DNA of 64,000 nt. Origin: a virus (taxonomy: Duplodnaviria; Heunggongvirae; Uroviricota; Caudoviricetes). This document shows positions 9,047 through 53,856 of the stretch, piece after piece (the stretch's first letter is position 1; every line of letters begins with the position of its first letter). The translations under genes and the position numbers were made by a program. The stretch lies in the IMG/VR virus record IMGVR_UViG_3300023697_000634. One strand, 5' to 3'. The notes under the pieces were generated by a model. It had not been told where the DNA came from. It searched no databases and saw nothing but the letters and a program-made list of their open reading frames with translations.

Positions 9047-9065
9047 TATTAACAACGATTATAAT

Positions 9066-28749: not shown

Positions 28750-29769
28750 ATGTCAAAAAAATACGACACTCTCGTCCTCATCGGACGCTTTCAACCATTC
28801 CATAACGCTCACCTTGAGATCATCAAGCGTAGCACTGCGCTCTGTAATAAACTGATTGTTATTACAGGCAGCGCAAAACAACCTCGCACATACAAGAATC
28901 CGTTCACTAGCTTTGAACGTGAGATAATGATCAAGCGTGCAACTGCAGGTCTCGCGTTGACTATCAATGTCGTCGAAAACATCGACACAATCTACAACGA
29001 CCAAGCGTGGGCCGTTCGCATCCAATCGATCGTGAATACTCTAGCATGCGATGGGGATAAGATCGGCATCATCGGTCACAAGAAAGATGACAGCTCATTT
29101 TACTTGGATATGTTCCCACAATGGGGATATGAGAACGTCGAAGAGATCACACCACTGAGTGCTGTCAACATTCGCGACCTGTACTTCAAGCGCAACTGTA
29201 ATCTCGAATTCATTCGCGGTGTGGTACCTCAAACCACTTTCGAAATCTTGCTGGACTTCAAGCAAAGCGAAGAGTATGAACAGATCATCCGCGAGCGTGA
29301 GTTTGTAGAGAACTACAAGAAGCAGTATGCATCACTCCCATATCCTCCAATCTTCAGTACTGCTGATGCTGTGGTGATCCAATCTGGTCACGTGCTAATG
29401 ATTCGTCGTCGGGCTGAGCCTGGTAAGGGTTTGTGGGCGCTTCCTGGCGGATACGTCAATGCAAACACCGATAAGAGCGTTGAGGCTGCAATGCTCCGTG
29501 AGCTCCGTGAAGAGACAAAGATCAAAGTTCCTGAGCCAGTCCTACGCGGCAACATCGTCCGCAGCAAGGTGTTCGATGCCGTCGATCGTAGTCCTCGTGG
29601 CCGCATCATCACTCATGCATTCCACATTCAGTTGCCAGATGGCGAACTACCAAAGGTCAAAGGATCTGATGATGCTGAAAAGGCACGTTGGGTTCCAATT
29701 GCTGAAGTGAAGAGCGAAGACTGCTTCGAAGACCACTTTGAAATTCTCCAACACTTCTTGGGAGCTTAA
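28750..29769 (+). CDS. natV: bifunctional NMN adenylyltransferase / Nudix hydrolase (NadM-Nudix, NatV-like)
   Basis: N-terminal LVLIGRFQPFHNAHLEII (archaeal-type NMNAT). C-terminal Nudix box GGYVNANTDKSVEAAMLRELREETKI. Confidence 0.8.
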   Translation: MSKKYDTLVLIGRFQPFHNAHLEIIKRSTALCNKLIVITGSAKQPRTYKNPFTSFEREIMIKRATAGLALTINVVENIDTIYNDQAWAVRIQSIVNTLACDGDKIGIIGHKKDDSSFYLDMFPQWGYENVEEITPLSAVNIRDLYFKRNCNLEFIRGVVPQTTFEILLDFKQSEEYEQIIREREFVENYKKQYASLPYPPIFSTADAVVIQSGHVLMIRRRAEPGKGLWALPGGYVNANTDKSVEAAMLRELREETKIKVPEPVLRGNIVRSKVFDAVDRSPRGRIITHAFHIQLPDGELPKVKGSDDAEKARWVPIAEVKSEDCFEDHFEILQHFLGA

Positions 29770-29771
29770 AA

Positions 29772-29924
29772 TGTCAGACGGACTAGATCGTTCGGGGCTA
29801 GAATGGTTCAATGAACGTGGCTATTGGGTAATCCGAAAGGTCCCTAATACCAAAGACCAATTCTACGTTGCTAGTATAGCAATTCCACCAGACAATGTTC
29901 TGGAAATTTATGGGATACTGTAAT
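29772..29924 (+). CDS. hypothetical protein (50 aa)
   Basis: ORF directly after natV. Confidence 0.25.
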
Positions 29925-30089
29925 GGGATGGACTGATTGGAATTGGATTAACGTCGCGCTTGTCTTCGTGAATGGAGCAGTGGCGTACATTTGTTTCACT
30001 GATGAGGATGTTGATCGTTCTTTCGGTGGTTGGGCAAACGTGGTTGCTAGTTCTATGAACGCTGCAATGATTGCAATAAAGGTTTTGTA

Positions 30090-30284
30090 ATGGTACGAAT
30101 TATCGATGCAACACCACACCAGAGTGTGGTCAAGAAGAAAGTCTGCCGTCACTGTGGCGTGACGTTGGAGTATGTTCCCAATGACATTCAAGAACGACGA
30201 GTTACTGATTATGATGGCAGTAGCGAACTGTTCAAGTACATCGAATGTCCTGCTTGTAAAACACACGTTGATGTGAGGTACTAA
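30090..30284 (+). CDS. zinc-ribbon protein
   Basis: CRHCGVT ... CPACKTH. Confidence 0.35.
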   Translation: MVRIIDATPHQSVVKKKVCRHCGVTLEYVPNDIQERRVTDYDGSSELFKYIECPACKTHVDVRY

Positions 30285-30285
30285 T

Positions 30286-31230
30286 ATGTGGAAAAATGTA
30301 AACGTCTTTGAAGATGAAAAAGAGCACGTTAAGAAGTATGTTTTCGAGAAAGACGATATCGCTATCGAGTCCGTTCTTTATCGTTATCCTACTTACGATG
30401 AACGCACTGTTCTCTGTATTAGTACCATGTGCGGATGCCCAATGGGTTGTCGCTTCTGTGGAACTGGTGATTATTTTGTTCGTAGTCTTACTGCGGATGA
30501 AATTGTAGGCCAAGCTGAATACATTCTCGAAACTCAAATCGGTGGTCTGAATCCTCGCGACATCAAGAAGCTGCAGATCATGGTGATGAGCATGGGCGAA
30601 CCTGCTTTGAACAAAGCTCTGGAAGAAGCATTTGATCGTTTATATGCAAAGTACCCAAATGCAGCACTGCTGATCAGCTCAAGCGGTCCTAAGGTTAGCT
30701 ACCAATGGATTATCGAAATGAGCAAACGGATTCCGACTGTCGGTTTGCAATTCAGCATTCACGAGAGTACAGACGAAGCACGCGACAAGTTGATTCCATT
30801 TGATAAGAAGTTGAACCTGCAAGAGATTGCTGATGTTGGCGTTCGCTGGCACTTGGATACTGGCCGTAAGCCATATTTCAATTACTGTGCTCACGAAGGT
30901 AATGACAAGATCGAAGACGTCCAACGACTACTCAAGTTGTACCACCCACGTATCTGGGAAGCGACTGTCTCTGTCATTTGCGAGCGTGATGCGCATGCTG
31001 AAGCAACGAACGACAAGCAACGCAACTTGGCTATTGAATTTGGTAACAAGCTGCTTGCCGAAGGATACAACGTCCGTGTGTTCGATCCAGCTGGTCAGGA
31101 TACAATCGGTGGTGGTTGTGGCCAGTTGTGGTATGTTCAAGACTGGATGAAGGATCATCCTGAGCATGTCAAGCCATCTGTTGGTTGTGGTATGCAAAAG
31201 GTCCATACACCAAAAGAATGGAACGTATGA
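30286..31230 (+). CDS. radical SAM methyltransferase, RlmN/Cfr family (lacks N-terminal accessory domain)
   Basis: LCISTMCGCPMGCRFCGTG (Cx3Cx2C), IMVMSMGEPALN (compare MMGMGEPLLN), ISSSGP, and a C-terminal GGGCGQLWYV (compare AACGQL). Both RlmN catalytic cysteines are conserved. Confidence 0.75.
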   Translation: MWKNVNVFEDEKEHVKKYVFEKDDIAIESVLYRYPTYDERTVLCISTMCGCPMGCRFCGTGDYFVRSLTADEIVGQAEYILETQIGGLNPRDIKKLQIMVMSMGEPALNKALEEAFDRLYAKYPNAALLISSSGPKVSYQWIIEMSKRIPTVGLQFSIHESTDEARDKLIPFDKKLNLQEIADVGVRWHLDTGRKPYFNYCAHEGNDKIEDVQRLLKLYHPRIWEATVSVICERDAHAEATNDKQRNLAIEFGNKLLAEGYNVRVFDPAGQDTIGGGCGQLWYVQDWMKDHPEHVKPSVGCGMQKVHTPKEWNV

Positions 31231-32018
31231 AGTTTTTGATCCAATACAATCTAATGGCAGAGTCACAACTCGAAGCAGTTAAGTCTGCAGCTCTGCCATA
31301 TCCTCACCAGTATGTTGGTGTGATTCCGTTTTCAAATGAGATCACAACAGCAGAAGGTGAAGAGATTGTTGGTACTGATTACATTCCATATGGGTCGACT
31401 CTGATGTCGACGATTGGTTTAGATTTGGGATGGAAGGGATTGTACTTCGATCTTGAGCAGTTCAATTACGAAGCTGCGGTCGCTAATCGGGATGATATGC
31501 TGAATGATGGTGCTATTATGACAGTCGAAGAGACTATCGACTTCATGCGCGCCAGCACTCAAGAACAATGGTTCATCCGTCCTTCGCTCGATCTGAAGCA
31601 TTTTGCTGGGCAGGTAATTGAACGCATAGAGTGTGTGAAGTGGTTAACACAAGCACTCAGTTGTTCATCATCTGAGACGAAACGGATGTACAAAGACATG
31701 AAGATTGTCGTTGCAACACCACAAAACATTCAAGCCGAGTGGCGTTGGTTTGTGGTCGGAGGCAAAGTGGTTGATGGGTCAATGTACCGCTCACATGGTC
31801 AATTGATCAAACAGCATGAGACTGATCCAAAAGTAATCGCTGAAGCACAAACGTTCGCCGACAAGTGGTCGCCAAACCGAAACGTCGTGATGGACTTGGC
31901 ACTTGTTGATAATGAATTGAAGGTAATTGAATTCAACTGTATCAACTGCAGTGGGTTCTACAATCACAATGTTCGTAAAATATTTGATGCACTGTATATG
32001 GAGAGTACAAAATGCTAA
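31227..32018 (+). CDS. ATP-grasp fold protein
   Basis: FIRPSLDLKHFAGQVI, EWRWFVVGGKVV and VMDLALVDNELKVIEFN resemble the ATP-grasp (RimK/GshB-like) strands. Start at MKFLIQ (ATGA overlap). Confidence 0.5.
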   Translation: MKFLIQYNLMAESQLEAVKSAALPYPHQYVGVIPFSNEITTAEGEEIVGTDYIPYGSTLMSTIGLDLGWKGLYFDLEQFNYEAAVANRDDMLNDGAIMTVEETIDFMRASTQEQWFIRPSLDLKHFAGQVIERIECVKWLTQALSCSSSETKRMYKDMKIVVATPQNIQAEWRWFVVGGKVVDGSMYRSHGQLIKQHETDPKVIAEAQTFADKWSPNRNVVMDLALVDNELKVIEFNCINCSGFYNHNVRKIFDALYMESTKC

Positions 32019-32491
32019 AGCATGTAAAAGGTAACTTACTCGATCTAGCTGAGGCTGGTCATTTTGATGTGGTCGTTCAAGGCTGCAATTGCTTCAACGC
32101 AATGGGTGGAGGGATCGCACGTGAGATTCGTGAACGCTATCCTCACGTTGCTAAGGTAGACTCTAATACTGTCCGCGGCGCATACAATAAACTAGGCAAC
32201 TGGACAAACGAACTGGTCATTCTCAAGAACGGCACAGTTTGCTTCGATGTCATTAATGCATACACTCAATACAACATGAGTACTGGTCAAGATGTATTTG
32301 AATATGCAGCGTTCGAATTAATTCTCCAAAAGCTACTATACACATATGGGGACAAGCGGATCGGATTTCCATTCATCGGTATGGGTCTTGCCCGTGGCGA
32401 TAAACAACGAATCATCGGACTGCTTGAATGGTTCGCTGATGAAATCGAGAAGCGTGGCGGTAGTGCGACGCTAGTGGAATTTCAACCATGA
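32012..32491 (+). CDS. Macro domain protein (ADP-ribose binding / hydrolase)
   Basis: KGNLLDLAEAGHFDVVVQGCNCFNAMGGGIAREI, the canonical Macro block. Confidence 0.75.
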   Translation: MLKHVKGNLLDLAEAGHFDVVVQGCNCFNAMGGGIAREIRERYPHVAKVDSNTVRGAYNKLGNWTNELVILKNGTVCFDVINAYTQYNMSTGQDVFEYAAFELILQKLLYTYGDKRIGFPFIGMGLARGDKQRIIGLLEWFADEIEKRGGSATLVEFQP

Positions 32492-32985
32492 ACATGATCA
32501 AATCCCCAAACGAGTACACCACTCGCAATAAATTCTCAATCTTCCTTGCTGGGTCGATTGAGATGGGTATGGCGGTAGATTGGCAACAGTCGATTGCCGA
32601 TGCGCTATACGACATTGATGGAGTACAGCTATTGAATCCACGACGTGATGATTGGGATTCTAGCTGGGCGCAGACAATCGAGAATCCACAATTCGCTGAG
32701 CAAGTGAGATGGGAGCTGACAGCGCTCGAGAAATCTGACTTGATCATCTATTACTTTGCACCAGGTACGCAAAGTCCAATCTCGTTGCTTGAGTTGGGGC
32801 TCTATGCAAACCACACGAAGAACATCTGGGTATGTTGTCCAGAAGGATTCTGGCGTAAGGGCAATATCGAGATCGTATGTCAACGATACATGATTCCGTT
32901 CTTCGATGATTTTGACCACATGGTGGACGATCTGAGGTACTATCTTCCGATTTGGACGGAAGATGACTACGAGCAGTTGACATAA
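32488..32985 (+). CDS. nucleoside 2-deoxyribosyltransferase-like protein (Rcl/DNPH1-like fold)
   Basis: IFLAGSIEMG and SLLELGLYANHTKNIWVCCPEG match the family's Rossmann motifs. Confidence 0.6.
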   Translation: MNMIKSPNEYTTRNKFSIFLAGSIEMGMAVDWQQSIADALYDIDGVQLLNPRRDDWDSSWAQTIENPQFAEQVRWELTALEKSDLIIYYFAPGTQSPISLLELGLYANHTKNIWVCCPEGFWRKGNIEIVCQRYMIPFFDDFDHMVDDLRYYLPIWTEDDYEQLT

Positions 32986-33013
32986 CAATGGGGTTATGCT
33001 ATACTGCAATCAA

Positions 33014-33040
33014 GCCCTCGCGATAGACGCGAGGCATTTT
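33014..33040 (+). terminator. hairpin (weak terminator) in the natV-block / nadV gap
   Basis: GCCCTCGCG-ATAGA-CGCGAGGC followed by ATTTT. TGCTATACT -10-like upstream. Confidence 0.3.
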
Positions 33041-33059
33041 AACTGTTAAGGAGATTAAC

Positions 33060-34457
33060 ATGAAACTGAGCAAAAATATCTTATTGAACACAGACAGCTA
33101 CAAAGTGTCAATGTGGAAGCAATACCCTGTTGGAACAACTGGCGTATTTTCTTACATCGAATCGCGTGGCGGTCGATACGATCAAACAGTGATGTTTGGT
33201 CTGCAAGCGTTCATCAAGGAGTACTTACTTGACCCCATTACACAGTCCGACATCGATATCGCCGAAGAGATTCTTCTCGCACACGGAGAGCCATTTAATC
33301 GTAGCGGCTGGCAGTATATCCTCGACAAGCACGACGGATATCTCCCCGTCATCATCCGAGCAGTCCCCGAGGGTACTGTGGTACCGGTTAAGAATGTCCT
33401 CGCAACCATCGAGAACACAGATCCCAACGTACCGTGGCTGACTACATGGCTCGAGACTCCTTTGCTTCGTGCAATTTGGTATCCAACTACTGTGGCAACA
33501 CAGAGCTGGTCGATTCGCAAAGTGATTTTGGATTATTTGGAGAAGACTGGTGACCCTGCTCTTATCGATTTTAAGTTACACGACTTTGGTGCTCGCGGTG
33601 TTAGTTCCCTTGAGTCCGCTGGCATTGGCGGCGCCGCGCACCTCGTTAATTTCATGGGTACCGATACTGTTACCGGTTTGTTGTATGCTCGTGAGTATTA
33701 CAACGCTGGTATTAGTGGGTTTTCAATTCCTGCAGCCGAACACAGCACAATCACAAGCTGGGGTCGTGAAGGAGAAGTCGATGCCTACCGAAACATGCTT
33801 ACAAATTTCGCTCGGCCCGGGTCCATTGTTGCAGTCGTTTCCGACAGCTACGATGTATTCAATGCCGCTAGCAAATTGTGGGGAGAAGAGCTCCGTCAGC
33901 AAGTGATTGATAGCGGTGCTACTGTCGTGATTCGTCCTGATAGTGGTGACCCTGTTGAAGTTAACCGCAAGTTGATTGAGATCTTAGGAGAAAAGTTTGG
34001 ATACACTACAAACGCCAAAGGATTCAAAGTCCTCAATAATGTTCGCCTCATCCAGGGGGACGGTGTCAATGAGTTATCCATCCGCAGTATCCTTGGGGCA
34101 CTCATGGCAATGGGATGGTCAGCAGATAACATTGCATTCGGTATGGGCGGTGCCTTGCTCCAGCAAGTCGACCGAGATACCCAGAAGTTCGCAATGAAGT
34201 GTTCTTCTGCCAAGATTAATGACGTATGGGTCGATGTACAAAAAGATCCAATCACTGATAGTGGTAAGAAGTCGAAGGCAGGCCGAGTTACTCTTTGGAA
34301 GAGTGGCGGCGAATGGATCAGTAGCGTCGAAAAGCCAGCTGGCTGGCACGACAAGGCAACTGGTGAGTTCGTCGAAGTACTGGAAACAGTATACGCTAAC
34401 GGAAAGTTGATTAACGAATATACATTCGACAACATCCGAGCAAGAGCTCGCAAATAA
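33060..34457 (+). CDS. nadV: nicotinamide phosphoribosyltransferase (Nampt, NadV-like)
   Basis: 465 aa. NAPRTase-family core, with blocks DSYD and RPDSGDP. Strong RBS AAGGAGATTAACATG. Confidence 0.8.
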   Translation: MKLSKNILLNTDSYKVSMWKQYPVGTTGVFSYIESRGGRYDQTVMFGLQAFIKEYLLDPITQSDIDIAEEILLAHGEPFNRSGWQYILDKHDGYLPVIIRAVPEGTVVPVKNVLATIENTDPNVPWLTTWLETPLLRAIWYPTTVATQSWSIRKVILDYLEKTGDPALIDFKLHDFGARGVSSLESAGIGGAAHLVNFMGTDTVTGLLYAREYYNAGISGFSIPAAEHSTITSWGREGEVDAYRNMLTNFARPGSIVAVVSDSYDVFNAASKLWGEELRQQVIDSGATVVIRPDSGDPVEVNRKLIEILGEKFGYTTNAKGFKVLNNVRLIQGDGVNELSIRSILGALMAMGWSADNIAFGMGGALLQQVDRDTQKFAMKCSSAKINDVWVDVQKDPITDSGKKSKAGRVTLWKSGGEWISSVEKPAGWHDKATGEFVEVLETVYANGKLINEYTFDNIRARARK

Positions 34458-34529: not shown

Positions 34530-34994
34530 ATGTTCAAATGGCCTTGGAAACGCGAACGACGAATTGCTTTTATTGATGGTGACCAATCATTGCCAGAAGT
34601 ACTCAGAGCATACAACAAACACATCGTCGGTACAAACACAGAAACGCACCTCGTGCGCCTAATAACACCACAAGCGAATGGCAGAAATAACGAGCCTCGT
34701 ATTCTTCGCGACATCGTGGGGATCAACAAGATCTACCTTGGCGGATTCTCAACTGGCAAGGAAGTGACCGATAAGTTCATCGGTGCTTACATTCAGAAAG
34801 CAGTCACAGATGGGTATACCCATATCTCTGTTGTGTCTAGTGATTATGATTTCATCGATATCTTCAAGATGGCAGCGATGGTCGATGATCGTGCTAAAAA
34901 GTTGACGTTTCGAATGATTGTCACTTCGCAGCGAAGCCCCAAGCTGAATGAAATGCCTGATCGTTTAATGAACATTGAAGTAGTGAGAGATTAA
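34530..34994 (+). CDS. hypothetical protein (possible NYN/PIN-like)
   Basis: RIAFIDGDQ resembles the NYN first motif, but this is weak. Start at MFKWPW. Confidence 0.3.
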   Translation: MFKWPWKRERRIAFIDGDQSLPEVLRAYNKHIVGTNTETHLVRLITPQANGRNNEPRILRDIVGINKIYLGGFSTGKEVTDKFIGAYIQKAVTDGYTHISVVSSDYDFIDIFKMAAMVDDRAKKLTFRMIVTSQRSPKLNEMPDRLMNIEVVRD

Positions 34995-35189
34995 ATGGAA
35001 TACACATTAGTAATTTGGACAGTCGTTGCTGCGTTCGGTACAGGAGCTGGCACATACAAGCCGCAAGAGTATCGCGATTGGCGACCGATAGCCGTTTTCA
35101 ATAATGGTGGTGCTCAATCGTTGCATCATTGTCACGCAGCTGCTGAACAATTGAAGCTGCAAAAATTTGAATGTATCAGAACCAAGTGA
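34995..35189 (+). CDS. hypothetical protein
   Basis: ORF of 64 aa. Confidence 0.3.
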   Translation: MEYTLVIWTVVAAFGTGAGTYKPQEYRDWRPIAVFNNGGAQSLHHCHAAAEQLKLQKFECIRTK

Positions 35190-35199: not shown

Positions 35200-36237
35200 A
35201 TGCGTAAACTTGCATCCATTCGTCGCATTGACGAACTGAACCCTATTGAGGGTGCCGACAAAATTGAAGTGGCCACTGTTGGTGGTTGGAAGGTCGTGTG
35301 CCAAAAAGGTCTCTACGTGGTTGGCGATCTTGCTGTATACTTTGAAATCGATTCGTTTATCCCAACGGCCGTCGCTCCGTTCCTAACAAAGGAAGGTCAC
35401 TATCCGAAGGTGTTTGAAAGAGTCGAGGGCGAACGTTTGAAGACAATCAAGCTGCGTGGCCAGTTGTCTCAAGGTTTGCTGATTCCGTTGAAAGAGATTG
35501 TGCCACTCTTCCCTGATAGCGAGTTCGATGAAGGTCAGGAGCTGATGGAGTTCTTCCGAGAAGATGCCGACATGACTGAATTTCTCGGTATCCTGAAATG
35601 GGAGAAGGCAATTCCTGCTCAGCTCGCTGGTATTTCTCGTGGCAACTTTCCAACTTTGATTCCAAAGACTGACCAAGAGCGTGTGCAAAACTTGAAGAAA
35701 GAGATTGCTGCTGCTCAAGGACAAGTATACGAAGTAACGGAGAAGCTGGAAGGCTCTTCGATGACTTGCTATGTGATTGATGGTGAGTTCGGAGTGTGCT
35801 CCCGTAACCTCAACCTCAAGGAAACTGAGGGCAACTCATTCTGGATTGCAGCTCGCGACAATGACCTTGAGCAAAAGATGCTTGCTCGTCAGTATGACTT
35901 CGCAATCCAAGGTGAGTTGATTGGTCCTGGAGTTCAAGGTAACATCTACAAATTGACAAAGCCTGAGTTCTATGTGTTTGACATCTATGATGTTAAGGAC
36001 GGCGAGTATATGAATCCAGCTGCACGTCGCCAACTGGTCGAGTCTCTTGGCCTGAAGCATGTGCCGATTCTGGACGATATGTATGTCCTTAACGATGATG
36101 TAGAACAACTGTTGACATTGGCTGAAGGCAAGTCTAGAATGTTTGATACGGAACGAGAAGGCATCGTGTTCAAACAGAATGACGGTGGCATGACGTTCAA
36201 AGCGATCTCGAACAAGTACCTATTGAACGAGAAGTGA
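35200..36237 (+). CDS. RNA ligase, Rnl5/DRB0094-like family
   Basis: N-terminal OB-like module, EKLEGSS (KxxG nucleotidyltransferase motif I candidate) and C-terminal FKAISNKYL. RBS AAGGAAAG. Confidence 0.55.
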   Translation: MRKLASIRRIDELNPIEGADKIEVATVGGWKVVCQKGLYVVGDLAVYFEIDSFIPTAVAPFLTKEGHYPKVFERVEGERLKTIKLRGQLSQGLLIPLKEIVPLFPDSEFDEGQELMEFFREDADMTEFLGILKWEKAIPAQLAGISRGNFPTLIPKTDQERVQNLKKEIAAAQGQVYEVTEKLEGSSMTCYVIDGEFGVCSRNLNLKETEGNSFWIAARDNDLEQKMLARQYDFAIQGELIGPGVQGNIYKLTKPEFYVFDIYDVKDGEYMNPAARRQLVESLGLKHVPILDDMYVLNDDVEQLLTLAEGKSRMFDTEREGIVFKQNDGGMTFKAISNKYLLNEK

Positions 36238-36256
36238 TTTAAGTTTTCTCCCCTTT

Positions 36257-36282
36257 GCGCCGGCTTGACCGGCGTTCTTTTT
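36257..36282 (+). terminator. Rho-independent terminator
   Basis: CGCCGG-CTTGA-CCGGCG followed by TTCTTTTT. Confidence 0.5.
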
Positions 36283-36636
36283 ATGAACAATCCACTAATA
36301 TTCATCACAGATATGCTCGCTGCAGCAAAGAAGTCCTATCAGGCTGCTGTGGAAGAGCGCAAGAAGAGAGAGCATAACGCTGAGCGTAAGCGGATCGCCA
36401 AGCACTTCAACAACTACTACACATACCGCCACCGTTTCGACACATCAAGCGACGAACGGCTGGACGGAACAGGGATGTGGGGCTTCACGCCAAAAAAAGG
36501 AAATGCGTGGATGTGTCCAACGTGCAATAAGATCCACTTGGCATCGAGCTGTAGTGCATTTTCCGGTCTGCAGTATCCACATTGCTGTGAGTATAGATCA
36601 CACCACAGGCTATACAACGACATCAGAACGCAATGA
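36283..36636 (+). CDS. Cys/His-cluster (zinc-binding) protein
   Basis: CPTCNKIH ... C ... HCC. Start at the ATG after the terminator (the track start at 36265 is a TTG). Confidence 0.35.
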   Translation: MNNPLIFITDMLAAAKKSYQAAVEERKKREHNAERKRIAKHFNNYYTYRHRFDTSSDERLDGTGMWGFTPKKGNAWMCPTCNKIHLASSCSAFSGLQYPHCCEYRSHHRLYNDIRTQ

Positions 36637-37160
36637 CGCCGCTATCGGAACACCTCAAGCAACGACACTTGGACATCGATCTCCACCGTCCAGTGATAGA
36701 CGAGGTGGATAGAATTGCTACGTTCTATTTGTGGAACCTTAGTGGTGCGCTGGTGGGGTTCCAACAATATCGTCCAGAGGGCGAAAAGAAGATCAACAAT
36801 AACCCCAAAGAAGGCAAGTACTACACCTATAAGAAGCAACCTACGATTGCTGTATGGGGCGTAGAATCGCTTTACCTTTCCTCGCACGTTGTGTTTATTA
36901 CGGAAGGTGTGTTTGACGCTGCTAGGCTAACTGAACGAGGATATAGCGCGCTAGCAATGCTGACGAACAATCCAACTGCAGATTATCGTAACTGGTTGAC
37001 GTTCTTGAATAGGACTGTCGTTGCAGTATGCGACAATGATAAAGCTGGTAGGAAATTAGCAGCGTTCGGTGATGTTGTAATTTTTACCGAAGATAAAGAT
37101 CTTGGCGATAGTGATGATGAATATGTCACTAATTTGCTATTGCCATATAAACTGTACTAA
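36633..37160 (+). CDS. TOPRIM-domain protein (DnaG-core-like)
   Basis: VVFITEGVFDA (TOPRIM Glu) and VAVCDNDKAGRK (DxD). Confidence 0.5.
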   Translation: MTPLSEHLKQRHLDIDLHRPVIDEVDRIATFYLWNLSGALVGFQQYRPEGEKKINNNPKEGKYYTYKKQPTIAVWGVESLYLSSHVVFITEGVFDAARLTERGYSALAMLTNNPTADYRNWLTFLNRTVVAVCDNDKAGRKLAAFGDVVIFTEDKDLGDSDDEYVTNLLLPYKLY

Positions 37161-37174
37161 AGGATAATGTGATT

Positions 37175-37735
37175 ATGAAAACATTTATTACATCAGACAT
37201 TCACTTCGGACATAAGAACATTATGAGCTTTTGTCCAGTATCGCGTGCTCGCTTCAAGGGCGACGTGGACTATATGAACGCTCAGATCATCCAAGACTGG
37301 AATAACATGATTGGCCCAGACGACTTGGTGTACATCTTGGGTGACGTTGCATTCTGCTCATGGGAAAAGGCAGTTGGTTTCTTGCGTTCGATGAATGGTC
37401 GCAAGATTTTGATCAAGGGCAACCATGACAGCAAGCTCGTTAAGAGTCCAGAGTTCGTTGCCTGCTTCGAAAGCATTCACGACTACTTGACAATTACATA
37501 TAACGGTACTCGGGTATCGATGTTCCACTACCCGATCGCTGAGTGGGATCAGATGCACCGAGGTGCTGTCCACTTCTACGGTCACTTGCATGGTGGCACT
37601 AGCGGATTGGAAAAGTACCGAGCAATCGATGTTGGTATGGATGGCAATATGTGCTACCCACATGACATGGATGTTGCTGTGGCAATGGCATTGAAGGGCG
37701 ACATCAAAAAGCACCACGACAAATATGGGAACTAA
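37175..37735 (+). CDS. calcineurin-like metallophosphoesterase
   Basis: ITSDIHFGH, ILGDVAF, GNHD and GHLHGG metal-ligand blocks. ATG after AAGGA (the track start is a GTG). Confidence 0.7.
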   Translation: MKTFITSDIHFGHKNIMSFCPVSRARFKGDVDYMNAQIIQDWNNMIGPDDLVYILGDVAFCSWEKAVGFLRSMNGRKILIKGNHDSKLVKSPEFVACFESIHDYLTITYNGTRVSMFHYPIAEWDQMHRGAVHFYGHLHGGTSGLEKYRAIDVGMDGNMCYPHDMDVAVAMALKGDIKKHHDKYGN

Positions 37736-37736
37736 C

Positions 37737-38207
37737 ATGAGCAAATTGAAATGCATTCAATTGGTTGGCGTGCCTGGATCAGGAAAGTCAACATGGATCA
37801 AAACACAAACAATGATCGACAACTTCGTTGTTGCGTCTACTGATAACTTCGTTGAGCAGCATGCTGCTAAAGAAGGCAAGACGTATAATGAAGTGTTCAA
37901 GGACTACATGCCGATCGCTGTGAGGTTGATGGCAAACCAAGTGTTGATTGCGCAAGCGAACAACAAGAACATCATTTGGGATCAAACGTCAATGAGCGTT
38001 GCATCTCGTAAGAAGAAGTTCAACACAATTCCCAACTACGAACACATCGCTGTTGTGTTCCCCGTTCCTGGTGAGGAAGAGTTGGCACGTCGGTTGGCAA
38101 GCCGTCCAGGAAAGTTGATTCCAGATCATGTTATGAAAAGCATGATTGACAGCTTCGAGATGCCGACTCTTGAAGAAGGGTTCACTGAAGTTCACGTTTT
38201 GCTGTAA
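37737..38207 (+). CDS. P-loop polynucleotide kinase-like protein (T4 Pnk kinase-domain-like)
   Basis: IQLVGVPGSGKSTW (compare T4 Pnk GCPGSGKSTW). 156 aa. Confidence 0.6.
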   Translation: MSKLKCIQLVGVPGSGKSTWIKTQTMIDNFVVASTDNFVEQHAAKEGKTYNEVFKDYMPIAVRLMANQVLIAQANNKNIIWDQTSMSVASRKKKFNTIPNYEHIAVVFPVPGEEELARRLASRPGKLIPDHVMKSMIDSFEMPTLEEGFTEVHVLL

Positions 38208-38218
38208 GGAGTATCGAA

Positions 38219-38479
38219 ATGGTAGTATTTCCAAAAGAGTTCGTTGCGATTCGTTATCCAGGCTACTTCTGGCACACGGTCGAGAAGCGTTTGTACACAA
38301 TCAAAGTGTCTGGTGAACTCCGTCCATTGAAATTCTGCCGTGGTGGTACATTCTATGGCAAAACAATTGAGCCTGGTTATCGCGTAAGCGTTCAAGGTGT
38401 ACGTAAGAAAGTATCGATGTCCTATCTGGGCAGCATTGGCGACTCGTGGGTGCAACAAGAGATTCCATATGAAAGTTAA
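38219..38479 (+). CDS. hypothetical protein
   Basis: ORF of 86 aa. Confidence 0.3.
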   Translation: MVVFPKEFVAIRYPGYFWHTVEKRLYTIKVSGELRPLKFCRGGTFYGKTIEPGYRVSVQGVRKKVSMSYLGSIGDSWVQQEIPYES

Positions 38480-39356
38480 TTCAGAATCGTTAAAGAAGTT
38501 CGTTGAAGAAAATCCAAAGCTGGTCTCTCGTCGACCAGCCGGCGATGGCATTTACGTCCTGAAATACAAAAAGACTGTATTCTATGATGGTTTGTGGAAC
38601 GATTACTTAGAAGAGTGTCGTGGTATGATTGTGGATGAAGATTACAACATCGTGTCATACCCATTCACGAAGGTATACAACTATGGCGTAGAAGCGAAGT
38701 CGCCTGTGTTGGATGGCAGCACGAAGATCAAGGCATACCGTAAAGTTAATGGCTTTATGGTCGCTGTAACGTGGCATAAAGACGATATCCTTGTGTCAAC
38801 TACAGGATCGACGGACTCCGATTATGTAAAAATGGCTCGTGAGTTTATCGATCGTGATTTGGATCTATACCGTGCTTGGTGTAAGGAATATTCGACATAC
38901 ACATTCATGTTTGAGTGTGTCCATAAGGATGATCCGCACATCATTCCAGAAGTGGAAGGGATGTATTTGCTAGGACACCGTCCAAAGTTCTTTGGTTCGC
39001 CAATTGGTGTGTCTGACGACATGCACAAGGCATTCAACTGCCATTCGGTTGAAGCAATTGAGTGTACGTTAGATACACTACGTTCGTTGGCTAAGACGGT
39101 GAGGCACGAAGGGTTCGTATTCTATACGTTGGACGGCATGATAGGCTCTAAGATCAAGAGTCCACATTACCTAGTGTCTAAGTTTGTTGCTCGTAATCCA
39201 CGAACTGACAAATTGATGCGTCCAGATGTGAAGAAGTCGCTCGATGAGGAGTATTATCCATTAATCGATGCCATCCAAGCGAACATCGATGCATATACTG
39301 CTATGGACGAACAGACGCGACTATCGTGGGTGAGGGAGTTTCTTTCAGCTCAATGA
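38469..39356 (+). CDS. RNA ligase 1 (T4 RnlA-like)
   Basis: LEECRGMIVDEDYNIVSYPFTKVYNYGV ... AYRKVNGFMVAVTW parallels T4 Rnl1 LECRGIMFE ... KFFNLNE ... TKEDGSLVSTY. Start at MKVNSE. Confidence 0.6.
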   Translation: MKVNSESLKKFVEENPKLVSRRPAGDGIYVLKYKKTVFYDGLWNDYLEECRGMIVDEDYNIVSYPFTKVYNYGVEAKSPVLDGSTKIKAYRKVNGFMVAVTWHKDDILVSTTGSTDSDYVKMAREFIDRDLDLYRAWCKEYSTYTFMFECVHKDDPHIIPEVEGMYLLGHRPKFFGSPIGVSDDMHKAFNCHSVEAIECTLDTLRSLAKTVRHEGFVFYTLDGMIGSKIKSPHYLVSKFVARNPRTDKLMRPDVKKSLDEEYYPLIDAIQANIDAYTAMDEQTRLSWVREFLSAQ

Positions 39357-40005
39357 GGATTCTTCTAGCAAGAGCGTTTCGCGATGCTTTGCTAGGGGAG
39401 CCAAGAATCACGATGATGTGTTCGTTGGTCGTCATTGCGATACACCAACCTGCAGCATTAGTGAATCCAGTCTTTGACCCAGTAATATGGGTAAACTCCT
39501 TTAACAGAGCATAGTTGGTATTTTGAATGAGGGCCAGATGAGCCCTCTTTCCTTTGGGCTCTATAACTTGGACAGTGGGCGCTGCTGCCGCTCTTATTTC
39601 TGCATACTTGGTAGCATGTGCTATTAGGACAGCGATGTCGACTGCTGTAGAAGTGTTCATGCCGAGCCCAGATGGATCGACGAACTTTGTATCATTCATT
39701 CCAAGCTGCTTTGCTTTGAAATTCATCAGATGGATGAATTGTGGTCTGCCATAGATTGCAGCCAGCTTCTCAGCGGATTTGTTGTTGCTTTGTACGAGCA
39801 TCGTGTCGATTAAGTAGCGATCATCGATGCCAAGTTCGATTGCTATGATTGCCGTCATCAGCTTCGTGATACTAGCTAGCGGACGTTGTGATGATTCATC
39901 TTGCTTCGCTACTACCCGACTGTGCTTCATATCAAACACAAACACAGACTCCTTAGCGAACGCTGGTGCCGCAAGCAGCAATAGGATGAGTAGCAGTTTC
40001 TTCAT
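39301..40005 (-). CDS. secreted serine-type D-Ala-D-Ala carboxypeptidase, peptidase S11 catalytic domain only
   Basis: Signal peptide MKKLLLILLLLAAPAFA. SxxK (ASITKLMT), SxN (QSNNKS) and KTG (SKTGFTN) motifs, co-linear with the PBP5 N-terminal domain. The C-terminal beta-sandwich domain is absent. Confidence 0.7.
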   Translation of the reverse strand: MKKLLLILLLLAAPAFAKESVFVFDMKHSRVVAKQDESSQRPLASITKLMTAIIAIELGIDDRYLIDTMLVQSNNKSAEKLAAIYGRPQFIHLMNFKAKQLGMNDTKFVDPSGLGMNTSTAVDIAVLIAHATKYAEIRAAAAPTVQVIEPKGKRAHLALIQNTNYALLKEFTHITGSKTGFTNAAGWCIAMTTNEHIIVILGSPSKASRNALARRILIELKETPSPTIVASVRP

Positions 40006-40094: not shown

Positions 40095-40736
40095 CTAAGG
40101 TAGTGGTAATTGTTTGTTCTTTCGGTTCTTCGATTCTTTATGAGAAACAGGAACATACGCCCATGTATGTATGGGTCCAGTTTTATCCATCGAGTCATAT
40201 TCAGTTTTCGGAATGCGACTGCTGTTTCCATCGACGTCGGTCACGCTAACTGTGCCAGATGTTTGCTTAAAGTCCCAACGGGGATGCTTAGAATGCTCAG
40301 CTCTGCGCTCAGCTGTCCAATATGCTTTATTGAAGTCGCTGTGAGCTTGTTTTCTTTGCTCATCCCACACAGGAGTAGGAGGTTCGCCGCGCAGCACTTT
40401 ATTTGCAAGTATGCCGCCAGAATCTATACCTTTCCGCCCATATCGTAGAATATAATATTCTTCTCTATTATATGCTAGTCGTTCATCGTCGATATCAGAC
40501 TCAAGTTCTACAATACGCGGCTCATTCCCAGCAGCACATAAATTGCGTATCTTCAGATGCTTGTCTACATTATCAGTAGTTTCGATGGTTTCTCGTAGAT
40601 GCTTGAATTTCCGGTCACCCCTACCCTTTCCGATGTAAAATGGTAGGTCGGTATTCGGATCGATGTAAGCGTATATGTAGTACATGCCTTTATTTATAAA
40701 ACACCAATCTTCAAGGTAGGTGTGTTTATAGTGCAA
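40095..40736 (-). CDS. GIY-YIG homing endonuclease
   Basis: MYYIYAYIDPNTDLPFYIGKGRGDR. The true start may be the internal Met at 40685. Confidence 0.55.
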   Translation of the reverse strand: MHYKHTYLEDWCFINKGMYYIYAYIDPNTDLPFYIGKGRGDRKFKHLRETIETTDNVDKHLKIRNLCAAGNEPRIVELESDIDDERLAYNREEYYILRYGRKGIDSGGILANKVLRGEPPTPVWDEQRKQAHSDFNKAYWTAERRAEHSKHPRWDFKQTSGTVSVTDVDGNSSRIPKTEYDSMDKTGPIHTWAYVPVSHKESKNRKNKQLPLP

Positions 40737-50343: not shown

Positions 50344-50483
50344 ACCATTTGTTGATGATATGGGTAGTTTGATCTATCCGTACACTCTAGGTGTAGGGAC
50401 ATTTCGTTCGCGATTGTTCTTCCACCGATCACTAGAAGGTGCTTGCTCGATGGCAACTGCTTATATGTTGGAATTTGGAAATG

Positions 50484-51005
50484 ACTAAAAGAATTTTCGT
50501 TGATATGGATGGAGTGTTGACGAACTTCACCCTCCGCTATACAGAACGATTTGGTATCACGCCGGCCGAAGTGCGCAAGTCCGCTGACCGCAAGCTATAC
50601 TCCAAGTATTGGAATCAGTTTGTCGATGGACAAGAATTTGCAACACTTGACAGCTTTCCGGGCGTCAACGATATGCTCAACTTTATCCGCGAGCAGCGCG
50701 ATAAGCACAAAGCACAAGTAATGATTCTCACATCGAGTGGTGGGTATGAGCGCCACACTGATGTGCAAGAGCAAAAGCTGGCTTGGCTGAAAAAGCATGG
50801 AATTGAATTTCCAGCCATTGTTGTGCCTGGCCGTGGATTTAAGTCAGGCTTTGCAAGTCCGACGTCATTCATTATTGATGATACCGCTGATGTTATTATG
50901 AACTTCCTTGCAAAGGGCGGCCATGGCGTGTTGCATACCACGACCGAGAAATGGAACACATGCTACACGCTCGAGCGTTGGATTGAAAGCACACATGGAC
51001 AATGA
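50484..51005 (+). CDS. HAD-superfamily 5'(3')-deoxyribonucleotidase-like hydrolase
   Basis: RIFVDMDGVLTNF (HAD motif I DxDGV). Confidence 0.6.
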   Translation, partial: TKRIFVDMDGVLTNFTLRYTERFGITPAEVRKSADRKLYSKYWNQFVDGQEFATLDSFPGVNDMLNFIREQRDKHKAQVMILTSSGGYERHTDVQEQKLAWLKKHGIEFPAIVVPGRGFKSGFASPTSFIIDDTADVIMNFLAKGGHGVLHTTTEKWNTCYTLERWIESTHGQ

Positions 51006-51429
51006 TAATTTCGATGAGAATGGCCACTTCGCAGTCAACCTCGAAGAGATTGCTTCGGGCAAACACCTACTCGCGATTACAAGGCTAACAGCTATGGAAA
51101 TCAAAACAGATGGCTATCTCACCGTTGGTCGTTTCTTACAACAGCTATCGGACCACGATCTGCAAGAGATTATGAACATTTGCGAAAAGGCAGATGATGA
51201 AAGCAATGATAAGATTGGTGACATCTTATTGATCGCTGAAATGCTTGCTAGCGCCGAAGGACTCGAACCTGGTGACGTTACTAGCATCACTAGACGAATG
51301 AACGCATTTATTATGCTGTTGACGATTGAGTCGTTGCATCGCAGAGGTCTTGTGAAGGCATACCACAATAATATGTCACTCGGCGATGATGCTGGTGATA
51401 AGATTATCGTTGAAAGAATTGACAAATGA
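50995..51429 (+). CDS. hypothetical protein
   Basis: ATGA overlap with the HAD gene. Confidence 0.35.
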   Translation: MDNDNFDENGHFAVNLEEIASGKHLLAITRLTAMEIKTDGYLTVGRFLQQLSDHDLQEIMNICEKADDESNDKIGDILLIAEMLASAEGLEPGDVTSITRRMNAFIMLLTIESLHRRGLVKAYHNNMSLGDDAGDKIIVERIDK

Positions 51430-51653
51430 GCATTCTTGAATTCCTCAATAGAGCAGTCGCGTTCTTAGGATCGATACTGCCCTACATGCTCGGCACGTTC
51501 TTACTGATGGTCGTGTGGGGATATGTATCGCAAGACGACTATGACGATGACTATGTTACATTTACTGTGTCGTGTAAGGCAGTAATGAACGACATGGACC
51601 ACTACCCAATTTACATTTTAAACTATTGCATGGATCAAAGGAGCGAGCGATGA
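51426..51653 (+). CDS. small membrane protein
   Basis: Hydrophobic helix LGSILPYMLGTFLLMVVWGY. Confidence 0.3.
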   Translation: MSILEFLNRAVAFLGSILPYMLGTFLLMVVWGYVSQDDYDDDYVTFTVSCKAVMNDMDHYPIYILNYCMDQRSER

Positions 51654-51928
51654 GTAACGCATGGAACTATATGGTAGATCATTTGTCAGGTGATCTCGAT
51701 TTCCTCAAGGAAAAAGATGAGAAGTATGTTGCGGACGCAATGTCGATTCTTGTAGAGAATGTGTTACTCCATCCTGAGTCGATTATTACATACCATCCAA
51801 CACAATGGGGTAAGACAGCATTGACGTATGATCAATTTGCAGCTCAGTTCTACCCGAACTTGTCTGGTGAAGAGTTAGACGGCGTTTGTAAGCCACAATA
51901 TCAAATGTACTTGGAAGGATTGCAATGA
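51650..51928 (+). CDS. hypothetical protein
   Basis: ORF starting at MSNAW. Confidence 0.3.
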   Translation: MSNAWNYMVDHLSGDLDFLKEKDEKYVADAMSILVENVLLHPESIITYHPTQWGKTALTYDQFAAQFYPNLSGEELDGVCKPQYQMYLEGLQ

Positions 51929-52284
51929 GCATTCTAGCACAAGCAGCAATAAAGACAGCTAAAGAAGTTGGGATGGGATTGTTGTTATTCGCGTTCATAG
52001 CAATGTTCTTGTTGTTGGCAGCATTTGCTCCATTATATGCAGCTGTTCTTTTAATTGTGGTACTGATATCAGGAGTATTCTATGGCAACTACCAAATCGC
52101 CCGCCGCGAAAAAGAGCTTGAAGAAGCCCGCACCAAAACCAAGCTCGACTACAAAGAGCTCGTCAAGCGCATCGAAGAAAACAACAACATCTTCCAGTCC
52201 GGTAGCTCGCCCAAAGCCGGCAGTGAAGTCAAAATCACCTGCACCGGTGGTTGTTCCGGATGTGGAGATAAGTCCACCAGTTGA
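51925..52284 (+). CDS. membrane plus coiled-coil protein with CxxC tail
   Basis: Two TM helices, then a charged helix and CTGGCSGCGD. Overlaps the next ORF by 200 nt in another frame. Confidence 0.35.
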   Translation: MSILAQAAIKTAKEVGMGLLLFAFIAMFLLLAAFAPLYAAVLLIVVLISGVFYGNYQIARREKELEEARTKTKLDYKELVKRIEENNNIFQSGSSPKAGSEVKITCTGGCSGCGDKSTS

Positions 52285-52441
52285 CAAATCTGGTAAATGG
52301 ACGTATCGTTGCAACGACGAACTCGTTACTGAGGATACGTTCAACTCGATTATGAAAGACCACGAAGCGTGGTTGATCGAGCAAGCAAATGCAGCCAAAG
52401 CTGCTGACCTTCCTGAAAAGAAAACAAGGAAAAAGAAATGA
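52082..52441 (+). CDS. Lys/Pro/Ser-rich protein (possible +1 frame continuation of 51925 ORF)
   Basis: KSPAAKKSLKKPAPKPSS ... then VDKSGKWTYRCNDELVTEDTFNSIMKDHEAW. The gene structure is unresolved. Confidence 0.3.
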   Translation: MATTKSPAAKKSLKKPAPKPSSTTKSSSSASKKTTTSSSPVARPKPAVKSKSPAPVVVPDVEISPPVDKSGKWTYRCNDELVTEDTFNSIMKDHEAWLIEQANAAKAADLPEKKTRKKK

Positions 52442-52680
52442 AGAGTTTGTATACAGTGCGTGTATCATATGACTATGTTGTCGCTGCTGATGGTGTAGAT
52501 GAGGCATATGCTATCGGTCAGAGCTGCATTAAAGAGGCGTTGTATGATATGCCAATCAACGATGTTGATGTTGATGTCCTCGAAGGTGTGCACGCACACG
52601 GTTGGGATAACGAATGCATTCCATATGGTGGTGATGGCAACACTCGCACAGGTGAATATTTGAAGGAGCAAGTAAAATGA
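52438..52680 (+). CDS. hypothetical protein
   Basis: ORF of 80 aa. Confidence 0.3.
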   Translation: MKSLYTVRVSYDYVVAADGVDEAYAIGQSCIKEALYDMPINDVDVDVLEGVHAHGWDNECIPYGGDGNTRTGEYLKEQVK

Positions 52681-52982
52681 AATCTATTACTATTATTTTT
52701 GGAACGATCGCTTTTGTCGTTGCAAGCATTCTCTTCCGCGCATGGGCACTGACTGTATTGTGGGCATGGTTCCTCGTACCGCTTGGTATGGTTGCGTTGT
52801 CAATCTCGAGCGCAATCGGCATTTCGATCATCGTCGGCATGTTCACTCAGCATCTCGCAAAAGAATCGAAGGATGAGAAGGCAAAAGACACATATGAATT
52901 GATCGGCGATATTGCTGGTCGTGCAATCGGTGCACCCTTGCTGTCATTGTTCTTTGGTTGGATTGTAACTCTGTTCATGTAA
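52677..52982 (+). CDS. membrane protein (3 TM)
   Basis: Hydrophobic helices. Confidence 0.35.
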   Translation: MKSITIIFGTIAFVVASILFRAWALTVLWAWFLVPLGMVALSISSAIGISIIVGMFTQHLAKESKDEKAKDTYELIGDIAGRAIGAPLLSLFFGWIVTLFM

Positions 52983-52983
52983 T

Positions 52984-53193
52984 ATGTGTGAATGTTCTGT
53001 CTGCAAGTATAGCAAACTGGTTAGACCAATGCTATTGCAACTCGACGAAGAACAACGGCAGTTCTTCGAACAGATGTATGAATCATTGATCGAGACTCAA
53101 TACGATCTCGACTACTACAAAGCAATCGTCGATGGTTCGTGGCCGATGGCAGATGAAATTATCGCACGTAAACGTAGGAAAGAAACTGAATGA
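52984..53193 (+). CDS. small Cys-containing protein
   Basis: CECSVC N-terminus. Confidence 0.3.
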   Translation: MCECSVCKYSKLVRPMLLQLDEEQRQFFEQMYESLIETQYDLDYYKAIVDGSWPMADEIIARKRRKETE

Positions 53194-53705
53194 AAGTAAT
53201 TATTGCAGGCGGACGCGATGTGTTTGACTTTGATGCTGTAAGCGAAGCAGTAAAGAAGTCAAACTATGTGATTTCTGAGGTTGTATCAGGTGGCGCTCAG
53301 GGCGCTGACCATCTCGGTGAGATCTATGCTGCTGAAAATAATATCCCAGTTAAGGTATTTCCTGCCAACTGGGATAAGCATGGCCGCTCAGCTGGGCCGA
53401 TTCGCAATGGCGAGATGGCCGAGTATGCCGATGCACTGATCGCAATTTGGGATGGCCAGTCTCGTGGCACGAAGAATATGATTGAACAGGCGACTGAAAA
53501 GGGGTTGCAGGTCTACGTCTATCCTGTATCCAAGCCTCGGTGGTTTGTTGGTGTGACTGCAGACAATAGAACGTACATCCAAGACGAAGACTTCAAGCAT
53601 GACGCTAGATTATACGTCGATGGAGACTTCTACACTGGCAAGCAAAAGATGGCATACGTCAGAATGATATGTGAGATATTAAATGAACACAACGATAGAA
53701 AGTGA
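53190..53705 (+). CDS. DUF2493 / SLOG-superfamily (YspA/LOG-like Rossmann) protein
   Basis: VIIAGGRD ... VVSGGAQGADHLGE ... VKVFPANWDKHGRSAGPIRNGEMA ... GQSRGTKNM, the DUF2493 pattern. Confidence 0.65.
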   Translation: MKVIIAGGRDVFDFDAVSEAVKKSNYVISEVVSGGAQGADHLGEIYAAENNIPVKVFPANWDKHGRSAGPIRNGEMAEYADALIAIWDGQSRGTKNMIEQATEKGLQVYVYPVSKPRWFVGVTADNRTYIQDEDFKHDARLYVDGDFYTGKQKMAYVRMICEILNEHNDRK

Positions 53706-53856
53706 CTTGACAGTCGTCGATAAGGCGGCATTTGAAGTTGCGATTATGCAAGCGATGGTGCTTTCAGTGCAGAACCTTGCACGCCAGGTTGAGCAGTTGA
53801 CTATACGTGTCGAGCGCCTAGAAGGAAATGATGATGGAAAAGATATTTCGCAGTAA
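53683..53856 (+). CDS. hypothetical protein (57 aa)
   Basis: Short ORF with a coiled-coil-like sequence. Confidence 0.2.
   Translation: MNTTIESDLTVVDKAAFEVAIMQAMVLSVQNLARQVEQLTIRVERLEGNDDGKDISQ

Follow-up and report, generated by a model that had tools for sequence, protein, structure and literature searches.

Two RNA ligase genes of different families in a metagenomic phage: a probable three-gene RNA break-repair set and an independent Rnl5-family ligase

When a phage encodes two RNA ligases of different families close together, with a phosphoesterase and a kinase between them, do the four enzymes make up one repair system or more than one? The question arises from a 64-kb stretch of tailed-phage DNA (IMG/VR record IMGVR_UViG_3300023697_000634; hereafter, the window). 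There, a first-pass annotation made from the sequence had placed an Rnl5-family ligase at 35200-36237, a calcineurin-like phosphoesterase at 37175-37735, a T4 Pnk-kinase-like P-loop protein at 37737-38207 and a T4 Rnl1-like ligase at 38469-39356, and had read all four as a single RNA end-healing and sealing module. The open reading frame (ORF) list of the stretch contains all four genes on the + strand at these coordinates, and the gene calls are identical on a public metagenomic phage contig that contains the stretch (ENA ERZ27252002, ~238 kb). The observation itself is confirmed, and its interpretation is partly supported. We think it probable that the window holds two separate things, namely a three-gene RNA break-repair set (37175-39356) and an independent Rnl5 nick-sealing ligase. 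The evidence consists of homology, near-complete catalytic residues, gene linkage and, in relatives, a tRNA-array context.

Linkage of the phosphoesterase, the kinase and the Rnl1-type ligase (the trio) was assessed in 79 IMG/VR loci carrying relatives of the Rnl1-type gene (57-69% identity), onto which we mapped the window proteins; the loci were dereplicated to 45 clusters, and neighbours were counted within 10 kb. The phosphoesterase was found in 73 of the 79 loci, on the same strand in every case and usually close by (≤100 nt away in 32, ≤1 kb in 64), and the kinase was found in 52. After dereplication, the phosphoesterase accompanies the Rnl1-type gene in 41/45 clusters and the kinase in 27/45, while the counts for other genes of the window are 9 for the Toprim gene, 6 each for DNA ligase, NAMPT and peptidase, 4 for NMNAT and 3 for Rnl5. 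Gene order is shuffled across clusters (MR, MRK, MKR, KMR and RM, where M is the phosphoesterase, K the kinase and R the Rnl1-type ligase), and linkage that persists through such rearrangement is good evidence for functional coupling. Cultured phages from several distinct groups also carry the trio, with an AAA_33 kinase: rV5_ev147, Vibrio phage Ceto, Ralstonia phage RSP15 and Acidovorax phage ACP17. In Pakpunavirus Pae01, we saw the phosphoesterase and the ligase and did not see the kinase. An HD phosphohydrolase stands alongside the set in RSP15, ACP17 and Pae01.

The trio is also tied to tRNA genes. Among the long trio loci, 22 of 25 have between 1 and 37 same-strand tRNA genes no more than 10 kb away, and in three of them (L019, L029 and L037) the phosphoesterase gene begins <30 nt after the last tRNA gene.

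The Rnl5 gene does not share this linkage. It lies near the Rnl1-type gene in the 3 clusters mentioned above, and among 18 Rnl5-centred loci the trio is found only in the near-identical relative L088, the other 17 being without it within 10 kb. Four Rnl5-centred loci were scanned for tRNA genes, and none contained any. In the window, a terminator-like GC-rich hairpin with a T-run (36257-36285, + strand) lies 20 nt past the Rnl5 stop codon. It was found by a consensus scan, its predicted RNA fold has an energy of -13 kcal/mol (z -2.6), and a relative with an Rnl5 protein of only 90% identity has the hairpin unchanged (100% identity). The rarity of Rnl5 near the trio, together with the hairpin after its stop codon, suggests that Rnl5 is a separate unit. 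That the two ligases flank the phosphoesterase and the kinase, as first described, is correct as to position; the description omitted the hairpin and three intervening ORFs.

On this evidence, it is unlikely that the four enzymes form a single module in which the phosphoesterase and the kinase heal RNA ends and the two ligases seal different classes of break. The genes do lie on one strand within 4.2 kb, and the two ligase genes are adjacent in Variovorax phage V45v66 and 5-9 kb apart in four of the IMG/VR loci (L042, L048, L054 and L056). The idea that different ligases serve different classes of break is also already in the literature on jumbo phages: comparative genomics proposes that multiple phage ligases are non-redundant (PMC7824862). 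Against a single module stand the scarcity of Rnl5 near the trio and the conserved terminator-like hairpin and three unrelated ORFs that separate them, as well as the biochemistry of characterised Rnl5 enzymes, which act on nicked duplexes, not on broken single-stranded loops (PMC4408790). What stands of the module is the association of phosphoesterase, kinase and Rnl1-type ligase, seen in dozens of loci; Rnl5 falls outside it.

The phosphoesterase (37175-37735) matches PHROG 547 ("phosphoesterase", 1.8e-49) and, slightly under its cut-off, Pfam Metallophos_2 (1.8e-5). All of the motifs that bind two metal ions (DxH, GD, GNH[DE], H and GHxH) are present, and residues D8, H10, D57, N83, H84, D85, H118, H137 and H139 are invariant in 23 phosphoesterase sequences, as expected of the calcineurin-like enzyme first called here. 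Of the solved structures, only 1xm7 (Aquifex aq_1665; E 1.2e-11 with the single sequence, 1.9e-14 with the family profile) is matched significantly by sequence. An AlphaFold2 (AF2) model, with a predicted local distance difference test (pLDDT) score of 85.5, has a metallophosphoesterase fold, and its best fold match is again 1xm7, at a template modelling (TM) score of 0.71. The top Foldseek matches were 1xm7, MJ0936, LpxH, PptH and Pseudomonas putida MPE; neither the lambda phosphatase nor the Pnkp phosphatase of Clostridium thermocellum was among the 50 fold matches listed. Judged by sequence and model, the protein therefore belongs to the uncharacterised aq_1665 clade and resembles Pnkp at the superfamily level only. 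Thus, of the proposed bacterial Pnkp-type combination encoded as separate genes, the separate genes are borne out, and the likeness of the phosphoesterase is reduced to its superfamily. It is gene linkage that points to a role for this enzyme in RNA 3'-end healing. PHROG 6931 was considered as a possible phosphoesterase-kinase fusion and rejected; the phosphoesterase did not match this profile even at E = 1.

The kinase (37737-38207), a stand-alone protein of 156 aa, matches Pfam AAA_33 (4.8e-18). Among solved structures, its best single-sequence match is Pnkp1 (2e-6), T4 Pnk is matched at 2.7e-4, and there are further matches to mammalian PNKP, CthPnk and, by profile, PSTK (4e-7); all of the significant matches are polynucleotide or tRNA kinases, in agreement with the original family assignment. 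Six residues are essential to the T4 Pnk kinase (K15, S16, D35, R38, D85 and R126; PMC2831316), and five of these are kept and invariant here (K17, S18, D36, D82 and R123), the exception being R38. The protein consists of the kinase domain only, and the C-terminal DxDxT (HAD) 3'-phosphatase domain is absent.

The Rnl1-type ligase (38469-39356) is short, at 295 aa, and matches Pfam RNA_lig_T4_1 (PF09511, 7.4e-12) and PHROG 562 (3.7e-47). A single-sequence search of solved structures gave no match, so the family profile was needed; its sole match was T4 Rnl1 (E 3e-10), in the nucleotidyltransferase domain only. Residues K92, N94, G95, E149, H213, E214, G215, K228 and K230, which include motifs I (KxxG), IV (EG) and V (KxK), are invariant in the family. 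The AF2 model (pLDDT 88.8) recovers T4 Rnl1 as the top Foldseek match (2c5u, E 9e-14), with the ligase domains of fungal Trl1 next (query-normalised TM-scores up to 0.73). The T4 Rnl1-like label is upheld for the catalytic domain. Past motif V, there are ~65 residues, modelled as short helices, so that the C-terminal end is about half as long as in T4 Rnl1. One further profile, PHROG 8238 (737 positions), is matched by the kinase at positions 5-70 and by the ligase at positions 413-587, suggesting that the two occur as a natural fusion.

The Rnl5-family ligase (35200-36237) has both domains of an ATP-dependent ligase of this type: a PHA02142 OB-fold (Pfam, 2.7e-28, residues 4-97) and a nucleotidyltransferase domain (Pfam RNA_ligase PF09414, 2.1e-31, residues 177-335). 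It aligns over its full length (residues 1-343) with the Naegleria gruberi RNA ligase NgrRnl (5cot; E 4e-83, ~50% identity), which settles the proposed family assignment. We checked the 13 active-site residues of NgrRnl (R4, D53, K121, T145, D146, R149, K170, D172, R190, E227, F248, E312 and K326; PMC7261155), and 12 are identical; the remaining one, D172, is replaced conservatively by E184, and NgrRnl tolerates D172A. The Rnl5 enzymes that have been characterised join 3'-OH/5'-PO4 nicks in duplexes in which RNA provides the 3'-OH strand (PMC4408790, PMC5397189) and work without healing enzymes (PMC4408790); their biological role has been described as uncharted (PMC4408790, PMC5397189).

How might these enzymes act? 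For the trio, we envisage a pathway with one gene per step. The phosphoesterase would open the 2',3'-cyclic phosphate and remove the 3' phosphate at a tRNA break, the kinase would phosphorylate the 5'-OH end, and the Rnl1-type ligase would reseal the break through a lysyl-AMP on K92. T4 Pnkp and Rnl1 likewise heal and then seal tRNA breaks that have a 2',3'-cyclic phosphate on one side and a 5'-OH on the other; in the pathway proposed here, a metallophosphoesterase would replace T4's HAD-type phosphatase. Rnl5 would belong to an upstream unit composed of NAMPT (33060-34457), a predicted NYN-domain RNase (34530-34994), a 64-aa ORF (orf64; 34995-35189) and Rnl5 itself, ending at the terminator-like hairpin. 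Its predicted substrates are 3'-OH/5'-PO4 nicks in duplex RNA, such as tRNA stems cut by metal-dependent nucleases, or RNA-DNA junctions. Nicks of this kind have a precedent: cleavage by the Toprim nuclease P2-OLD gives 5'-P/3'-OH ends, and T4 RNA ligases 1 and 2 resealed a single nick in a stem with no end healing (PMC12445682). More broadly, and with less conviction than we attach to the division into two, the aq_1665-type enzyme, an orphan of structural genomics, may be an unrecognised RNA 3'-end healer in a widespread large-phage tRNA repair pathway tied to tRNA arrays, with the NYN protein and Rnl5 as a second cut-and-seal system acting on duplex RNA.

Several points weigh against this reading. 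We infer all of the enzymatic activities, the substrates and the counter-defence role. The window contains no tRNA genes along its 64 kb. The kinase is absent within 10 kb in ~40% of the dereplicated trio loci. By profile, T4 Rnl1 aligns with the Rnl1-type ligase across residues 35-249 only, leaving the T4 C-terminal domain without a sequence-alignable counterpart. Work from the Shuman laboratory reportedly shows that this helical domain (~120 aa) confers the tRNA-repair specificity of T4 Rnl1. That specificity can thus not be assumed for the window ligase, nor can the parallel that had been drawn to T4 repair of tRNA-Lys after PrrC cleavage. In the kinase, T4 Pnk R38, which binds the acceptor 3'-phosphate, aligns with an invariant valine (V39); mammalian PNKP is also without a counterpart of R38, yet is a polynucleotide kinase (PMC2831316). 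The phosphoesterase family is found in at least 1579 phage records, as against 690 for the Rnl1-type ligase, and in Staphylococcus Kayvirus there is no RNA ligase annotated within 6 kb of the phosphoesterase gene, so its role may be broader than, or other than, RNA repair. The call of the hairpin as a putative terminator depends on a consensus and a fold prediction. Lastly, in V45v66, which is unrelated to the window phage, the Rnl5 and Rnl1-type genes are adjacent on one strand (L001 4458-6891), so some coupling between the two ligases is possible. Between them is a 194-aa ORF of no known family, and there is no recognisable kinase or phosphoesterase within 6 kb.

The tRNA genes near the trio also bring up another use for it, namely to mature the tRNAs that the phage itself encodes or to control their quality, by re-joining or trimming array transcripts, instead of mainly reversing host nuclease damage. 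This would fit the position of the trio within or abutting same-strand tRNA arrays in relatives, the spacing of 3-8 kb between set and array in rV5, RSP15 and Pae01, and the finding that other phages encode the small Toprim protein next to CCA-adding enzyme genes or tRNA arrays. We nonetheless regard it as improbable. The window and the relatives closest to it in arrangement (L021 and L042) are without tRNA genes yet keep the phosphoesterase and the ligase, and tRNA arrays and accessory genes tend to occupy the same genome region anyway. Moreover, to our knowledge, no bacterial or phage tRNA maturation step needs a kinase-phosphatase-ligase pathway.

A slightly weaker candidate is that the phosphoesterase, and perhaps the kinase, acts on nucleotides or on NAD-derived or cyclic-nucleotide immune signals, with the Rnl1-type ligase as just a neighbour in a counter-defence island. 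The wide distribution of the phosphoesterase family (more than twice that of the Rnl1-type ligase) would suit such a role, as would the presence of MJ0936 phosphodiesterase and LpxH among its fold neighbours, the Acb3-like and YAcAr proteins encoded in the window, and the proximity of the phosphoesterase to NAMPT or NAD-salvage genes in the window, Ceto, Staphylococcus Kayvirus and one further locus (L113). The linkage counts argue otherwise, with the phosphoesterase linked to the Rnl1-type gene in 41/45 clusters, often within 100 nt, and NAMPT linked to that gene in 6/45; likewise, the significant structural relatives of the kinase are polynucleotide and tRNA kinases. That the Rnl1-type protein is mainly a tail-fibre attachment factor, like T4 gp63 in its second function, is very improbable: PHROG 562 and many GenBank records are indeed annotated "RNA ligase and tail fiber protein attachment catalyst", but this name is inherited from T4, the ligase catalytic motifs are invariant across the family, and the genes conserved nearby are for end-healing enzymes and tRNAs instead of tail proteins.

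The reading of a break-repair trio with a separate Rnl5 can be set beside systems already described. With T4 Pnkp (PseT) and Rnl1 (gp63), which counter PrrC, the trio has in common the same three predicted steps of 3' healing, 5' phosphorylation and ATP-dependent sealing. The window kinase is of the Pnk clade, and T4 Rnl1 is the only profile match and best fold match of the window ligase. It differs from T4 in that the kinase has no HAD domain and no R38 equivalent, the candidate for 3' healing is a binuclear metallophosphoesterase, and the ligase is 295 aa instead of 374 aa. Pnkp/Hen1 of C. thermocellum and Pnkp1-Rnl-Hen1 of Capnocytophaga gingivalis likewise combine a kinase, a calcineurin-type phosphoesterase and an ATP-dependent ligase. 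In the window, however, these are separate genes and not one polypeptide, the phosphoesterase is aq_1665-type and not lambda-phosphatase-type, and the ligase is Rnl1-type and not Pnkp-type; no methyltransferase/Hen1 domain was detected among the scanned ORFs of the region. Fungal Trl1 (ligase-kinase-cyclic phosphodiesterase) also heals and seals, and its ligase fold is nearly as close to the window ligase as that of T4 Rnl1. In Trl1, however, all activities are on one polypeptide, the cyclic phosphodiesterase is of the 2H type, and a junction 2'-phosphate is required; the window ORFs scanned included neither a 2H phosphoesterase nor a Tpt1-type 2'-phosphotransferase. The window Rnl5 has the two-domain layout of DraRnl (Deinococcus radiodurans) and NgrRnl, and differs from them in being phage-encoded and downstream of a putative NYN-domain gene.

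Similar gene sets have been reported in phages. According to Iyer et al. 2021 (PMC7824862), jumbo phages encode ligases of the Rnl1, Rnl2 and RtcB families alongside polynucleotide kinases and phosphoesterases, with calcineurin-like phosphatases in a small number of them, and the Pakpunavirus Adele is described as having a kinase without a 3'-phosphatase domain and two distinct RNA ligases (PMC12846349). Since these descriptions precede ours, the gene set of the window is of an already known, predicted kind, common in known phages, and the window is a good but ordinary example. Both are genome-annotation statements, and the passages drawn on here do not set out the tight linkage of the phosphoesterase to Rnl1, its position inside tRNA arrays or the separate standing of Rnl5.

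Thus, the results worth taking forward are the phosphoesterase-Rnl1 linkage, which gives an orphan clade a testable function, and the tie to tRNA arrays. Cleavage of tRNA is increasingly seen as an anti-phage defence, as in PrrC, RloC, PARIS, OLD, Cas13 and Cas12a3. If the proposed role is correct, the trio would be a common phage countermeasure to such cleavage, and an uncharacterised metallophosphoesterase clade with a solved structure (1xm7) would gain a function. The prediction is directly testable in cultured carriers (rV5-like coliphages and Ceto, as well as pakpunaviruses with at least the phosphoesterase and the ligase). For the window alone, the outcome is a better annotation and no new principle.

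Turning to the neighbouring genes, we looked at the gene upstream of Rnl5 as a possible partner. It encodes a putative, divergent NYN (PIN-like) domain protein of 154 aa, predicted to be an RNase, and belongs to a family of 69 representatives in which D16, D18, E78, D81, K82, D105 and D107 (most of them acidic) are invariant. The window protein itself has no Pfam or PHROG match; 26 of 43 family members match Pfam NYN (PF01936), at E 2.6e-6 for the best of them. Run against solved structures, the family profile gave nothing significant. The NYN gene adjoins Rnl5, with orf64 between them, only in one sub-lineage. As a constant partner of Rnl5, the NYN protein was therefore only partly borne out, most other NYN loci being without Rnl5 and having no common neighbour. 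It is a possible partner of Rnl5 in this lineage, and was not part of the module first proposed. The orf64 product has no Pfam or PHROG match; the ORF is a called gene on public contigs and is kept only in close relatives, plus a weak match downstream of the ligase in locus L009. Around the Rnl5 genes of Pseudomonas phage Boevelstad and Variovorax phage V45v66, we found no conserved partner.

Between the hairpin and the phosphoesterase gene lie a Cys-rich ORF (36283-36636, ~117 aa, CPTC...HCC) and a stand-alone DnaG-type Toprim protein (36633-37160, 175 aa). The Cys-rich ORF, whose start was placed at an ATG past the hairpin, is found only in near-identical contigs and gave no family match in Pfam and PHROG scans. 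The Toprim protein matches PHROG 849 (6.5e-40, profile positions 149-330 of 435), Pfam Toprim_2 (0.0012) and, at E 0.08, DnaG structures. Stand-alone homologues, 172-176 aa long, are encoded by Synechococcus phage B3, by Vibrio phage eugene 12A10 and by T5-like phages; those in L106, L107 and L108 are at 8986-9516, 4986-5507 and 2986-3504, respectively. The Toprim gene adjoins a CCA-adding enzyme gene in eugene 12A10, is ~3 kb from one in phage B3, and directly precedes the tRNA array in T5-like phages. The label "DNA primase" given to it in GenBank, for example in T5-like phages, is unproven, and an RNA-processing role is possible. We also considered whether the Cys-rich ORF and the Toprim protein are a split DnaG primase. 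This is unsupported: the Cys-rich ORF is confined to near-identical contigs, and neither in phage B3 nor in a T5-like phage does the ORF upstream of the Toprim homologue encode a zinc ribbon.

The third intervening ORF (38219-38479, 86 aa) is between the kinase and Rnl1-type ligase genes and overlaps the start of the latter by 11 nt; it too was seen only in near-identical contigs and had no family match in Pfam and PHROG scans. All genes from NAMPT to the Rnl1-type ligase are in one + strand run, and past the ligase the genes lie on the opposite strand and encode a peptidase S11, a GIY-YIG endonuclease and a protein of 554 aa. The longest peptidase ORF (39301-40005, - strand) is convergent with the ligase gene and overlaps its 3' end by 56 nt (39301-39356); some public gene calls have a shorter, 212-aa version, in which the overlap of the gene ends persists. 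The GIY-YIG gene (40095-40736, - strand), between the peptidase and 554-aa genes, is missing at the same site (L008 ~11537-11649) in a 98%-identical IMG/VR relative, and the pattern resembles presence/absence polymorphism in a mobile homing endonuclease. A scan for sigma-70 promoter-like sites returned 8, fewer than the 12.1 found in shuffled sequence, so we make no claim about promoters, and the window has no match to an Rfam family. At the nucleotide level, a megablast search of GenBank phages with the 4.2-kb region gave no match, and neither did a tblastn search with a 787-aa ORF of the window; a 235-kb relative is present in IMG/VR.

Further out, the surroundings of the locus (28750-34457 and 50439-54586) look like a counter-defence island. 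Upstream, they include genes for an NMNAT-Nudix protein (28750-29769), a radical SAM protein (30286-31230), an R2K ATP-grasp protein (31185-32018) and a nucleoside 2-deoxyribosyltransferase-like protein (32488-32985), in addition to NAMPT. Downstream are genes for an NT5C-like protein (50439-51005), a YAcAr SLOG protein (53190-53705) and an Acb3-like inhibitor of the cyclic-oligonucleotide-based antiphage signalling system (CBASS; 53828-54586).

Two minor observations concern the relatives of the trio. Within their tRNA arrays, ARAGORN called unusually long tRNA-Ile genes (anticodon TAT, 91-95 nt) in L019 (8708-8802), L029 (8286-8380), L034 (4604-4695), L046 (15679-15770), L054 (19458-19549), L059 (20043-20134) and L075 (4060-4151), with the anticodon at the odd position 31 in most; an intron or a long variable arm could account for the length, or the genes could be miscalled. 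In addition, the annotations of trio genes in cultured phages are often wrong. The AAA_33 kinase of rV5_ev147 (L124 11583-11993) is mislabelled "RNA ligase 1 and tail attachment protein"; its neighbour, the true ligase homologue, is labelled "hypothetical", and in RSP15 (L002 5914-6849) GenBank calls the Rnl1-type ligase a "metallophosphoesterase."

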